A DNA stretch of 64,000 bases from Escherichia coli (GTDB lineage Bacteria > Pseudomonadota > Gammaproteobacteria > Enterobacterales > Enterobacteriaceae): the NCBI RefSeq assembly GCF_044324875.1, contig NZ_CP172185.1, one strand, 5' to 3'. The notes under the pieces are model-generated. The model had not been told where the DNA came from. It saw only the letters and a program-made list of their open reading frames with translations, and did no database searches. Positions 19,492 through 25,249 of this stretch are shown here, in pieces. Each line of letters opens with the position of its first letter. Position 1 is the stretch's first letter. The position numbers were made by a program, and so were the translations under genes.

Positions 19492-20376
19492 TCAGAACAG
19501 GCGATCCCACAGTGTGATCAGCAGGCGGATAATGCGATCACGGGCTTTGCGCAGAAGCTGCAGCATCCAGGCCGGAAAGCTGAACCGGGCAATGGCAGCG
19601 TCAAAACTCTGGCCGATGGCGTCACCAAAAGCCTGCTGTGCGTGTTGCTGATCCTGCGCAGTGCGCTTTTCATTCCGGATATGCGAATAAACCGCGCTGG
19701 TTGCCTGTGGTGGCAGGGCGTGGATCATCAGAGACACAAATGCCGGAAGATTCCAGCCGGCAGGAGCGGCTATGGGGAGTACCGGAAATGATGAAGGGAA
19801 CAGGGTTGCCACCCGGGCTGTCACCGTCGCCAGTGAGAGTTCCTGCTGACGGGATGGCGTGCTGCTCTGGTTGTTCCATTCTTCAGCCGGGTGGATGCGA
19901 TCGGCATGGCTGAGAACAAACAGAAAACGCGAGGGATCGGCACCTTCATTCAGTAAAAACTGATGCATGGCGATGTCGGCAGCATACGCACGTTCATCAG
20001 CCCGCAGGATCCAGATAATCAGATCCAGTTCGGGCAGTAACTGACTGTAAAGTGCCCGGTATTCCTGATCATGCTGTGGTGTTTCGCCAGTGCCGGGCAG
20101 ATCGACCAGCGTCATTCTTCGTTCACCGGGCTGAAAGGTAAGACGATGAGCCTGACGGGTGCAGCCGTTCAGCGGATGCGTGGCGCAGACACGGGACTGA
20201 AAAATGGCATTGCACAGGCTGCTTTTTCCGGCACCGGATTTACCCATAATGCCAATAACGGGTTCGTACTGAATGACGCTGCGAAGATGTTCAAGGATTT
20301 TCTGGCGAATTTCTTCAGGAAGAAAGGTCAGATGTGACTTTACGTGTGCGGAGAGGGAAGAATGGCTGAATGACAT
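19492..20376 (-). CDS. YeeP/YfjP/YkfA-family GTPase
   Basis: 294-aa ORF with G1 motif GIMGKSGAGKSS and DLPG G3-like motif. Confidence 0.85.
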   Translation of the reverse strand: MSFSHSSLSAHVKSHLTFLPEEIRQKILEHLRSVIQYEPVIGIMGKSGAGKSSLCNAIFQSRVCATHPLNGCTRQAHRLTFQPGERRMTLVDLPGTGETPQHDQEYRALYSQLLPELDLIIWILRADERAYAADIAMHQFLLNEGADPSRFLFVLSHADRIHPAEEWNNQSSTPSRQQELSLATVTARVATLFPSSFPVLPIAAPAGWNLPAFVSLMIHALPPQATSAVYSHIRNEKRTAQDQQHAQQAFGDAIGQSFDAAIARFSFPAWMLQLLRKARDRIIRLLITLWDRLF

Positions 20377-20476
20377 ACCGTTATCCTGTTGATTTCACTG
20401 AACCGGATCACATTAATCCGGCCTCTCAGTCAGGTAATATGGACGTGAAAATTTTTCCATTGACGGGAAGAAGAGT

Positions 20477-21700
20477 ATGGCTAAAAACAAAGGTATCTGT
20501 CGGAATAAAAAATGCAGCAATCCTGTTTCAGAATTTGATGAGGCAAATGCCCTGAGGTTATGTGATGATCATTATCAGTTATGGAAACGAAATAAAGAGA
20601 ACCGTCGGGTCAGGAATATTTGTCGTATAATCAGTAAATATGACAAAAGTCTGGACCGGGAGATATTTGACAGAGTAATAGATGCTGCAAGAAATCAAAC
20701 GGGAAAGAGAATTGTTGAGGACGCAAAAATATTACATCAATTGCGCAATTCAAAGCAAGTAAGAAAAAGTCTTCATAATGGAGTACTCCGGTCACGGGAA
20801 TGGCTCAATACACAGGAGTTACTGAGAAGAAAAAATATATCTGTTACAGGTGACTCATTTAAATCTTACATAAAGGATATTGTCAGATTATATTGCTATA
20901 AGTTTCTCTACAGCAGAGAATATCTTAATGAAAACGCATACAAAAAACAATATCAGAGAGTTATTAACCCCAGAGAATTTAATGTTCCGATACTTCAACT
21001 TGAAGTTGCATGGATCAATAATAATTGCCGTTCAAGTGATTCAAGCTCTGATATTATCATCCTTCCCAGGATGATAAGAAGAATGGTTGTATTTAATGAT
21101 ACGAAGATAAATAAACAATTAGAGGAAATGTTGGGGGGGATAGCACGAAAAAAAGTCGCAGTAAGGAATAAAGGCGGTCTCTATACCAGAATAAAAAAAG
21201 AAAATGATTTTCGTTCTATGGATAGATTTATGGTGGAAATCGAAAATATCATAAGACCTGAAATATTTCCGACATCAATTTACCCGCCTTTTTCACTTTC
21301 ATTTATCGAGAGAGAATTGCCACTACTGAATCTGGCGCACTCACAGTACAAAAGAGCAATAAGTAAAAAAGTGGCGAATTCAATTTTTTATACTTTGCGA
21401 AAAACTCACGTGGCATTATGGCTGCATCTTGAAATGTTTGCTCTTGTGGCATTCATCAAACTGTATACAGGAAAAGGGTTTGAATTCATGAAAAACATGT
21501 GTGTATTTATAGATTATGATAAAGGGATAATAAAATCCACGCATGAAGAACTGCTGAGTGAAATTAAGTGTAACATTCAGTTGAATTTAAAGGTGAATCC
21601 TGATAATTTTCCTGAATTAATAGAAATATACAATTCATGCTTTAGTAAAAATATATTGTTGTATGATGTTCAGGATGATGGTTTTAAATGGTGTTTATGA
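20477..21700 (+). CDS. hypothetical protein (407 aa), AT-rich orphan with N-terminal Cys/His cluster; no family recognised
   Basis: long clean ORF, visibly more AT-rich than flanking prophage genes; N-terminus CRNKKCSNP...LCDDHY; divergent from GTPase gene. Confidence 0.6.
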   Translation: MAKNKGICRNKKCSNPVSEFDEANALRLCDDHYQLWKRNKENRRVRNICRIISKYDKSLDREIFDRVIDAARNQTGKRIVEDAKILHQLRNSKQVRKSLHNGVLRSREWLNTQELLRRKNISVTGDSFKSYIKDIVRLYCYKFLYSREYLNENAYKKQYQRVINPREFNVPILQLEVAWINNNCRSSDSSSDIIILPRMIRRMVVFNDTKINKQLEEMLGGIARKKVAVRNKGGLYTRIKKENDFRSMDRFMVEIENIIRPEIFPTSIYPPFSLSFIERELPLLNLAHSQYKRAISKKVANSIFYTLRKTHVALWLHLEMFALVAFIKLYTGKGFEFMKNMCVFIDYDKGIIKSTHEELLSEIKCNIQLNLKVNPDNFPELIEIYNSCFSKNILLYDVQDDGFKWCL

Positions 21701-22199
21701 TGTGAAAATATTAAATTTATATTACATTTTAATTATCGACAAAAAACACATAAAGAAATCTAAAGGGAATGAGCGTCAAATGAGCTGATATAGCGCCAGT
21801 TTGGTATGGTCATGTGATTTGATGATTAAAGCTTACGGATAATAACACTCCTCTGTGAGCCATATAAATGAGCATGCCATAATCGTCAGTTCAGAGATAA
21901 AACTGACTGAATGATCTTATGTTATAGTAAGCAGTGTTTACCGGATACGATGACTTATCTCTCTCACATCATATGGATTCACTTTCATGGGGTAAAGCGA
22001 TGGGACTACAGACGCTGATTATGATGGTTTGCTGTAAAGTTAGCACAAGTTTTTGCTGTACAGAATACGGAGTAAGAAAAATAATTCCAGAGTAAATCTG
22101 CTCTGCTTTTGAACAGAAAAGATTCATGCTTACCGTGAAAAACTGAAACCAACATTCAGTCTGCATGGATGTCTTAAGATGTTGAGAATGTCGGATATG

Positions 22200-23283
22200 G
22201 TATTATATACACCTTTTCCATTAGGTCCTTTTATGTTTTCATTAAGTCGTTTTGTATGTATTCCTTCAGTGATTCATTAGTGCATGTTTACGCATTTACA
22301 CACTTTTCCCATTAATCTCCTTTAAATGTGTTTCATTACGCATTGCTGTACACATTTTTGAACTGATACACATCCAAGTTAGTAAACCTGTCAGTTCTGA
22401 TTTTACGTTAACTAAATCAGTTTAATGCTGCTGTAAAACAATCTTTCCTGTTTAAGCAATCAATCTGCTATTCGATTTTACTGATGTGACGTTTAACCTT
22501 TCCTGAGCTTTGGTTGTTTGTGGTTTTTGGTTTGTGTTTCGACGTTAAGCTGAGAAAAGTATCTTTACGCTAAATCAACCCGAACTTTCCTGAGGTGATC
22601 TGACGTTCTTTTCGATGTGCTTACGACGATTCTGTTAAACGACTTTCTGGATGTTTTGATAACAATCAGATTGAGGCATTAACGATTCCTGACGTTTTGC
22701 TTTTTCATGTAAGGTCATTGTTTTCGTCATGATGTGGTTTTTCTTCTTGCATTGCGAAAGTGTGATGATTGGTTTTGGTTTTTTGATTCAGATGAGATTT
22801 ACGTTATCGATGGTTAATCGTTTTTATGGTGCGTAGTGAAACGTAACATTTTCGGGATGAGAAAATCGATTCTGATGGTGATGGGGATGATCGTGTTACG
22901 GCGTTATCTGTAAACAGGTTTTAAACGTGTCATTCGCATTCGTGATTGAGTTGTGTGATTAAGCTGTAGGTTTTGGCGTTGTTGTTGATTTGCATTGCCA
23001 GGAAGCGTTCTGGTTGCGTTTCTGGTGTTTTGTTCGAATGTTCTGTGGATCCTTTTCCCTTCAGGCTTTTCTCGTCGTCCATGTCGTTTTTAAATCCATT
23101 CATGCTGTTGTTGCGTGTTTTGCTGCTGTGTGCAGGATTATCTTTTCGTTCCGGGATGGTTTGTTCCGTTTCAATCACTCTTAATCAGAGAGTTGTAGCA
23201 TTGCTTAATGACATGATGCCGTAAAGTTTTACCGCGGTGATTAATGATGTGAAGTCAATCCAAATCAACGGAGATCTCTCATC
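22200..23283 (+). other. ORF-poor, strongly GT-skewed (plus strand) non-coding tract upstream of YagK/YfjJ paralog 1
   Basis: about 1 kb of T- and G-rich sequence with short motifs repeated; only short low-complexity ORFs. Confidence 0.5.
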
Positions 23284-24015
23284 ATGAATCAACCAATACA
23301 CAATGCTTACTGGTTATCCCGTTTTGACAGCCTTCTCGACAGTGCCCTGTCGCAGCACCGTGCCGTCTCGTTAATCCGGGTGGATTTACGTTTCCCTGAG
23401 TATATGCCTGTCACCATCATGGATCCCGATCCGGATTCAGCGGTGATTTCTCGTTTTTTCGAATCCCTGAAAGCCAAAATCCAGGCTTACCAGCGGAAAA
23501 AACGACGTGCCAACAAGCGTGTGCGTGCAACCACTCTGCGTTATTTCTGGTGTCGGGAGTTTGGCAAGGAAAAAGGCAGGAAACATTATCACGTGATATT
23601 GCTGCTCAACAAAGATACCTGGTGCTCGCCAGGGGATTTCAGCGAACCATCTTCGCTGGCGACGATGATCCTGGAGGCATGGTGCAGCGCCCTGCATCTT
23701 GAGGCCTGGCAAGGCGATGGCCTGGTCCATTTTTCCAGGTGGACGCCTTCCCGTAAACCAGCATCGTCTGATGCTCGCCCTTCTTCCGATGACACGCCTT
23801 TGTCGGGTGGATGTTCTGATACCAGGAAGGCTTCAGAAAAAAAGCCGGGTGAAGCCGCTGTTCTCTGGATCAAGCGTGGTGATGTGGAAGCGCTGCAGAA
23901 AGCCCGGAACAGAGCCAGTTATCTCGTGAAATATGAGACGAAGCAGCATGACGGTTCCGGGCAACGTAATTATGGTTGCAGTCGTGGGCCGGGGCGTCTG
24001 CTGGATGGCAGGTGA
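23284..24015 (+). CDS. YagK/YfjJ-family (Inovirus Gp2-like) protein, paralog 1
   Basis: 243-aa ORF; shares blocks with paralogs 2 and 3 (HYHVILLL / EYHVVLCV; MILEAWCSAL / LILDAWSNVL). Confidence 0.7.
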   Translation: MNQPIHNAYWLSRFDSLLDSALSQHRAVSLIRVDLRFPEYMPVTIMDPDPDSAVISRFFESLKAKIQAYQRKKRRANKRVRATTLRYFWCREFGKEKGRKHYHVILLLNKDTWCSPGDFSEPSSLATMILEAWCSALHLEAWQGDGLVHFSRWTPSRKPASSDARPSSDDTPLSGGCSDTRKASEKKPGEAAVLWIKRGDVEALQKARNRASYLVKYETKQHDGSGQRNYGCSRGPGRLLDGR

Positions 24016-25012: not shown

Positions 25013-25249
25013 ATGTTGACCTCAATGACAGGTCACGACAGCGTATTGCTGCGTGCCGACGATCCCCTGATCGACATGAACTACATCACCAGCTTCACTG
25101 GTATGACCGACAAATGGTTTTACAAGCTGATCAGTGAAGGCCATTTCCCTAAACCCATCAAACTGGGGCGCAGCAGCCGCTGGTACAAAAGTGAAGTGGA
25201 GCAGTGGATGCAGCAGCGAATTGAGGAATCACGAGGAGCAGCAGCATGA
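25013..25249 (+). CDS. alpA: AlpA-family prophage regulatory/excisionase-like protein
   Basis: ...MTDKWFYKLISEGHFPKPIKLGRSSRWYKSEVEQWMQQ matches the AlpA HTH pattern; true start may be an internal Met. Confidence 0.8.
   Translation: MLTSMTGHDSVLLRADDPLIDMNYITSFTGMTDKWFYKLISEGHFPKPIKLGRSSRWYKSEVEQWMQQRIEESRGAAA

Follow-up and report, generated by a model that had tools for sequence, protein, structure and literature searches.

The window analysed here, a stretch of 64,000 nucleotides of the Escherichia coli contig NZ_CP172185.1 (assembly GCF_044324875.1), contains a CP4-like island in which an open reading frame (ORF) of 407 amino acids, hereafter X (20477-21700, plus strand), begins with ATG and has no internal stop codons. 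On its left, transcribed divergently, is a GTPase gene of the YeeP/YfjP type (MMR_HSR1; 19492-20376, minus strand), the usual neighbour of the X family, and the next backbone gene on its right belongs to the inovirus Gp2 or YagK-YfjJ family (23284-24015, plus strand); RefSeq names them 'GTPase family protein' and 'inovirus Gp2 family protein'. The first-pass annotation of the window, made from the sequence alone, described X as a long intact orphan gene between genes of these two types and proposed it as a candidate for a novel defence or accessory gene. The reading frame and the neighbours were described correctly. The product of an identical region in strain E41 is WP_045147348.1, a 'hypothetical protein'. 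X occurs at 1066 places in 974 of the 5426 complete genomes of E. coli, among them uropathogenic strain 536 (UPEC 536) and avian pathogenic strain O1 (APEC O1). It is covered over at least 80% of its length in 967 of the 974 and thus is not a pseudogene, and among the matches listed it is annotated as an intact 'hypothetical protein' in 40 of 40.

The G+C content (GC) falls to 0.31-0.40 across 20250-23250, with 0.50-0.60 on both flanks; X itself has a GC of 0.339 (0.31 at third codon positions, GC3) compared with 0.55 (GC3 0.57) for the adjacent GTPase gene. The AT-richness of X relative to its neighbours had been taken to imply separate acquisition, a conclusion that is not supported: low GC characterizes the whole family, with values of 0.32-0.37 in seven distant homologues (0.49-0.58 in their GTPases, where present) and 0.34-0.45 in the E. 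coli lineages, and therefore is no sign of a recent arrival of this copy.

X lies within a replaceable cassette. When the region was compared by blastn with three other E. coli islands (L019, L020 and L021), homology ended at 20451-20461, 16-26 nucleotides before the start codon, and resumed at 22078-22079, 378 nucleotides past the stop codon, in all three islands despite their differing cassettes; the surrounding backbone is approximately 88-89% identical among the compared islands. The shared breaks on the left and right define a cassette at approximately 20452-22077 that consists of X and 378 nucleotides of 3′ flank. With a query made of the GTPase gene and X, the GTPase subtype was found in 1886 of the 5426 complete genomes and X adjoining it in 969, while in approximately 900 genomes homology stopped at query position 960-970, which is the same left break.

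A hidden Markov model (HMM) of the X family, run with filters off, recognizes the occupant of every sampled E. coli slot (E from 1e-149 to 4e-6), including all of the alternative occupants. The latter comprise a 376-amino-acid protein with a zinc finger (E 3e-27; 463 E. coli genomes, 516 places), a group of 310-320-amino-acid proteins without a zinc finger (E 1e-9 to 4e-15; 741 genomes, approximately 812 places) and a 319-amino-acid protein (E approximately 3e-6; 43 genomes, 44 places). Sequence identity is approximately 20-25% across the major types and 53-70% within the 310-320-amino-acid group. The slot holds the same family in 10 of 10 sampled E. coli islands and also in the loci of Atlantibacter and Klebsiella oxytoca, and no empty slot was seen among these. 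Summed over the lineages, the family accounts for approximately 2438 places, which corresponds to approximately 96% of the 2540 places found for the GTPase subtype; this is a comparison of sums, adjacency having been checked in the sampled loci only. At least five deep lineages are carried on one backbone and exchanged as a cassette of approximately 1.6-2.8 kilobases with sharp, shared junctions. The variable hotspot of the first-pass annotation is real in the sense that its content is exchanged between these breaks, but it does not admit arbitrary cargo; a comparison of related islands for different cargo in the slot returned occupants of one family throughout.

The short lineages that lack the zinc finger are always accompanied by a convergent partner gene of 262-284 amino acids (minus strand; 9015-9818 in L019, 8950-9804 in L021, 6938-7726 in L023 and 6921-7730 in L026). 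The partners constitute a separate family that is itself divergent (20-27% identity between types), and their C-termini have several weak but mutually consistent matches to ribbon-helix-helix repressors of the Arc/CopG type. One E. coli genome (NZ_CP033635.1) carries both the 407-amino-acid lineage and a 316-amino-acid lineage, the latter at up to three places, so different lineages can reside together in one genome.

The sequence of X itself has no match in Pfam, NCBIfam, PADLOC or the sequences of the PDB, and a whole-protein scan against PHROG gave a weak match (E 0.043) to a non-HNH family of unknown function; neither a housekeeping family nor any other known non-defence family was matched. 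Since none of these databases supplies a sequence match, the term orphan is valid, but solely for the query's own matches. The statement that X has no recognizable motif beyond its N-terminal cysteine-histidine cluster likewise stands for the query and fails for the family, because an HNH ancestry is recognizable through the relatives. The most distant members (P0034 and P0038, later also P0085 and P0086) carry the segment LEVSHRYPNSKGG....N....P..INRM opposite 'LEVAW...DIIILPRMIRRMV' of the query; the LEVSHRYPNSKGG segment is a canonical HNH motif and is in ungapped register with the query segment. The four members of the integrase-proximal branch carry the motif H...P..KGG...N...N. P0038 matches HNH-endonuclease families of PHROG (phrog_8660, E 8.8e-7; phrog_1271, E 1.5e-4), and its 52-amino-acid motif segment matches the HNH region of Cas9d (E 8.5e-4) as well as IscB and endonuclease VII. 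When the query clade (14 sequences) was aligned with the HNH-retaining branch (four sequences) by hhalign, the alignment spanned 364 columns, kept the motif in register and had a probability of 99.8% (E 8e-30); the profile of the HNH-retaining branch found no match among PDB sequences. Beyond the close family, Foldseek of the AlphaFold2 (AF2) model of X against AFDB50 returned full-length relatives with 16-20% identity (E 1.7e-8 to 5e-4) from E. coli, Serratia, Providencia and Lelliottia, two of which, with E-values down to 1.7e-8, are labelled HNH endonuclease.

Descent of the X family from zinc-finger HNH (His-Me finger) endonucleases is therefore supported, only transitively, by the PHROG matches of P0038 together with the hhalign link between its branch and the query clade. 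A UniProt fragment 87% identical to the query (A0AAW5Z627) is also labelled 'HNH endonuclease'. The TrEMBL name 'Reverse transcriptase' given to one member (P0016 or A0AAX3CP38, locus L003, 10001-11257) was rejected, as 15 of 15 members have no Pfam match and the alignments show no conserved YxDD; the other named cluster members are all called 'hypothetical protein'.

The active site has not survived in X. The catalytic histidine and the two asparagines correspond to W179, D192 and R201 of a degenerate beta-beta-alpha (His-Me finger-like) segment (residues ~173-206; 20993-21094, plus strand; LQLEVAW179...D192IIILPRMIR201RMV). The H..N..N residues are kept only by P0034, P0038, P0085 and P0086 and are absent in 14 of 14 members of the query clade; those E. 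coli and Atlantibacter lineages with an alignable motif region also lack them, and the 319-amino-acid type cannot be aligned there. The full-length AF2 model (mean predicted local distance difference test score, pLDDT, 79; predicted template modelling score, pTM, 0.68) places beta strands at 175-179 and 193-197 and a helix at 198-219, in the position aligned with the motif, and the pLDDT of this block is 79-93. As X lacks the catalytic residues, it is not filed as an HNH endonuclease: it is HNH-derived, and judging from these residues HNH nuclease activity is very unlikely. Their loss also disfavours the role of a stand-alone nuclease effector.

Two other parts of the protein are better conserved. 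The N-terminal cluster noticed in the first-pass annotation is a zinc-finger-like module (C8-x4-C13-x15-C29-x2-H32; 20498-20572, plus strand) of which all four residues are unchanged in 18 of 18 aligned zinc-finger-bearing members. Scanned alone against PHROG, this segment has a sole, marginal match to an HNH-endonuclease family (phrog_5351, E 0.041), and the copy of the module in the relatives matches phrog_1271 'HNH endonuclease'. The C-terminal helical domain (residues 231-407; 21167-21697, plus strand) contains motifs found family-wide (GGLY, LPL..L...Y.R, E319 and LYNSxF). Between the alleles of the window and UPEC 536, the synonymous divergence (dS) of X is 0.23 and the ratio of nonsynonymous to synonymous divergence (dN/dS) is 0.29, similar to that of the GTPase gene (0.21); the ratio varies along the protein, from 0.03 for the zinc finger (residues 1-50) and 0.21 for the C-terminal domain to 0.51 for the degenerate HNH core and 0.77 for the linker. 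X is under purifying selection, which is strongest on the zinc finger.

The association of the X family with the GTPase extends beyond E. coli. When 1.84 billion cluster representatives were searched exhaustively with phmmer, only 26 matched, of which roughly a dozen are full-length and have 21-37% identity, and a word-indexed search agreed; the named members are from E. coli, Salmonella, Klebsiella, Citrobacter and Scandinavium. (A scan of contigs for exact peptide patterns gave four loci and is no measure of taxonomic spread.) Of 23 elements whose flanks could be read, 20 have a family member adjoining the GTPase, and relatives with 20-37% identity to X adjoin it in six other genera of Enterobacteriaceae and several metagenome contigs. 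In Citrobacter, Klebsiella michiganensis, Atlantibacter, K. oxytoca and three metagenome contigs, the homologue is divergent from the MMR_HSR1 GTPase gene at a distance of 83-105 bp and is followed by AlpA and YagK/YfjJ genes, Phage_AlpA being 290-430 bp downstream in the other genera; in Scandinavium the GTPase is missing and the remaining layout is kept. The HNH-retaining branch has a co-directional layout instead (integrase, an ORF of 138-141 amino acids, an AlpA-like helix-turn-helix gene, X, GTPase and WYL, and further on DUF932), so the link between X and the GTPase holds in two gene orders. Across genera X diverges much faster (24-37% identity) than the GTPase (50-70%). No homologue of the family was found among the 50,697 phage genomes of INPHARED, in plasmids or in IMG/VR. 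One locus assigned to 'Chryseobacterium sp. 18061' (L028, CACSKA010000007.1) is arranged as in Enterobacteriaceae bacterium RIT691 and Scandinavium; its label is probably wrong or the assembly contaminated.

A nuclease ancestry with loss of catalysis would also be expected if X were a selfish, free-standing homing-endonuclease gene of the HNH type that had invaded a fixed intergenic site and was decaying, functionless for island and host, late in the homing cycle. The combination of HNH and zinc finger does resemble homing-type HNH families of phages, X is AT-rich relative to its flanks, and its junctions with conserved genes are sharp. However, purifying selection, the intact state of the gene and the lack of empty sites (ten islands of E. 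coli and two of other species, with approximately 96% of GTPase places explained) make this a poor fit; conservation over the full length reaches far beyond the nuclease motif, and the family is absent from the phage genomes and IMG/VR. A homing gene is considered the most improbable of the explanations weighed here.

A role of X in defence is possible. It could be a single-gene system of anti-phage defence or abortive infection, or form a two-gene system with the GTPase, in which the variable body would sense components of the phage and diversify in an arms race. X occupies the same relative position as the cargo of CP4-57, as the first-pass annotation pointed out: the occupants there in E. 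coli K-12 are abpAB and rnlAB. The rapid divergence of X relative to the GTPase, the turnover of cassettes with sharp junctions and the nuclease ancestry all agree with such a role, as do the partial match of the C-terminal third of the GTPase (residues 183-284) to the LeoBC model of PADLOC (E 3.8e-7) and the type I restriction-modification (RM), TIR, McrBC and GmrSD genes in nearby arms of related loci. Against it, no variant matches any PADLOC model: zero families were found for the query (E up to 1), and zero for four other lineages, three partners and one further ORF of a cassette (E up to 0.1). With its catalytic HNH residues gone, X has no other effector domain that can be recognized; unrelated systems are what a true defence hotspot holds, but one family fills this slot in every island examined; and phages, plasmids and IMG/VR are devoid of the family. 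The weightiest of these points are that the only recognizable effector chemistry is lost and that no lineage has a PADLOC match, and an identity of X as a defence or abortive-infection gene is rated unlikely.

Unrelated, swappable defence cargo sits elsewhere in these islands, either on the far side of AlpA and YagK or where the leftward operon ends (13706-21204 in L003; 282-3649 and 14063-21230 in L009; 2097-5300 in L010; 1-772 in L002). The examples include a type I RM system, a TIR protein, BrxR with methyltransferases, McrBC, GmrSD with an AAA_15 ATPase, and a ScoMcrA-like HNH_2 protein.

The right-hand side of the cassette is followed by a conserved, AT-rich, strongly T-skewed non-coding stretch of approximately 1.2 kilobases (22078-23283) that is 70-92% identical at the nucleotide level across islands with different cassettes and ends at the Gp2/YagK-like gene, the equivalents of which in other loci match Pfam YagK_YfjJ_C or REP_ORF2-G2P. 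The stretch has four copies of WTTCCTGW on the same strand (22444, 22499, 22586 and 22685, spanning 22444-22692), and of seven other islands that were checked, five have two to four copies, likewise placed ahead of the Gp2/YagK-like gene and at comparable offsets. The copies could be iterons or an origin for the Rep-like Gp2/YagK protein. The AT-rich gap has no Rfam match and was not enriched in scans for promoters and terminators, and tblastn found no remnant of alpA or of a partner gene in the 1.6-kilobase gap. Further right in the same rightward gene set is an AlpA-type regulator (25013-25249, plus strand; 'helix-turn-helix transcriptional regulator' in RefSeq).

Other backbone genes of the island, as annotated in RefSeq, encode DUF932, antirestriction, RadC, CbeA/CbtA and DUF4942 proteins. 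Establishment-type genes of this kind (antirestriction, DUF932, RadC) invite the idea that X is a counter-defence or establishment factor, a decoy derived from a dead nuclease that would bind or block nucleic-acid-targeting systems of the host or of competitors, in the way of the ArdB/KlcA antirestriction gene of the neighbouring operon, and would diversify against the defences of its hosts. An inactivated nuclease fold with retained binding modules and the hypervariability of X are in keeping with this idea, but X, alpA and yagK are all transcribed in the direction that leads away from the antirestriction operon, and X has no similarity to known anti-defence proteins; the idea is judged quite improbable.

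The reading favoured here is that X acts without catalysis, binding nucleic acid as a specificity or regulatory factor linked to the GTPase operon, and that it is drawn from a resident family of HNH derivation that is exchanged as a cassette. As a whole, this statement is tentative and has somewhat less than an even chance of being right; its structural and evolutionary part, taken alone, is held with considerable confidence, whereas its functional part is rather doubtful. A gene that is divergent from a conserved operon or directly upstream of it is in the typical place of a regulator. X would no longer cut DNA, and would control or work with the adjacent GTPase operon and the alpA and yagK genes. 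The binding of DNA or RNA would fall to its zinc finger, and rapid diversification to the remainder of the protein; in the short lineages, binding may be supplied by the separate ribbon-helix-helix partner. The pattern of divergence suggests that conflict drives the diversification of X, which might reflect immunity-like discrimination between related islands resident in the same genome or, alternatively, the sensing of a phage or plasmid inducer, as in the Stl repressors of Staphylococcus aureus pathogenicity islands (SaPI). It is conceivable, if doubtful, that X is the specificity or sensor subunit of a new conflict system centred on the YeeP/YfjP-type GTPase, such that a swap of cassettes changes the specificity; the system might serve defence against phages or mobile genetic elements, or an immunity-like coexistence of several related islands in one genome.

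The divergent intergenic region shared by the GTPase operon and X may hold the promoter or operator for X. The part of it that precedes the cassette (20377-20451) lies inside the 89% identical backbone match and is the putative location of such a site, and the whole region of 100 nucleotides (20377-20476) is identical to the UPEC 536 allele at 91 of 100 positions. A perfect palindrome, CCGGAT-N7-ATCCGG (20403-20421), is retained in the UPEC 536 allele and is a candidate operator, a palindrome of 6 bp not being statistically remarkable by itself.

Several observations weigh against the favoured reading. The strongest is that 20377-20451 is conserved whichever type of cassette follows and does not covary with the lineage, which is unexpected if each lineage had its own operator there. 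The distance matrices of X and the GTPase agree no more than loosely (Mantel r 0.52, p 0.006; Spearman correlation not significant). On the structural side, fold searches with the whole AF2 model did not find an HNH structure, the model of residues 98-228 alone has too low a pLDDT (64) for a fold search, and the query has no significant profile match to any HNH or DNA-binding family. Finally, the fast diversification and the position equivalent to that of the CP4-57 cargo fit defence or counter-defence equally well. A strict co-phylogeny of X and the GTPase was rejected on the Spearman result and because the GTPase subtypes cut across the X clades, an incongruence that indicates modular exchange with adjacency preserved. 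With co-phylogeny unsupported, the description of X as a vertically co-inherited backbone gene was dropped in favour of a resident family exchanged as a cassette.

Genes of the X family may be present in up to about one-third of complete E. coli genomes, going by the 1886 of 5426 that have the GTPase subtype, and the copies are all 'hypothetical', with no Pfam or NCBIfam model. What appeared to be a lone orphan becomes a defined locus, in which a single HNH-derived family occupies a fixed slot as a cassette and is linked to an uncharacterized YeeP/YfjP GTPase. The conserved core of the CP4-like 'cryptic prophage' islands, long without an explanation, can be approached through this locus, which also exemplifies a nuclease fold that was apparently put to another use once catalysis was lost. 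If the diversification of X reflects conflict, be it defence, counter-defence or immunity between islands, the locus would represent a new type of system in a very well-studied organism. In the related SRL (Shigella resistance locus) island, the ORFs between alpA and the GTPase gene are listed with 'no similarity' (PMC6980539), and no description specific to this family of elements or to the X gene was found in the literature.

Three kinds of known systems may be compared with X. The first is the HNH endonucleases of phages and other mobile elements (PHROG families 8660, 1271 and 5351; the HNH domains of Cas9d and IscB; endonuclease VII of phage T4), with which the integrase-proximal branch shares the motif in exact register; the C-x4-C...C-x2-H module of the X family likewise matches their profiles, and the query appears from its model to keep the beta-beta-alpha pattern. 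Unlike these enzymes, X and all of the E. coli lineages with an alignable motif region lack the catalytic histidine and both asparagines; X is roughly double the size of a typical stand-alone HNH enzyme, its C-terminal part being a conserved helical domain, and its family, unlike the phage enzymes, is absent from phage genomes. The second is CP4-57 of K-12, where abpAB and rnlAB lie between yfjJ and the GTPase gene yfjP, a position equivalent to that of X with respect to the alpA/yfjJ-type genes and the GTPase. CP4-57 differs in that it has no X, its cargo has no sequence relation to X and its GTPase is 35-44% identical to the X-linked GTPases; the slot of X held one gene family, not unrelated systems, in every island examined. 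The third, by analogy and with no claim of homology, is the immunity regions of lambdoid phages and the Stl repressors of SaPI, examples of master regulators that diverge extremely while keeping a fixed place in a mobile element. X differs from these in having no helix-turn-helix domain and in that the upstream intergenic DNA does not covary with the allele. Like them, X stands at a fixed, divergent regulatory junction and has deep allelic lineages on a similar backbone, and the way in which its putative nucleic-acid-binding module, under constraint, is joined to a remainder that evolves fast may be a comparable arrangement.

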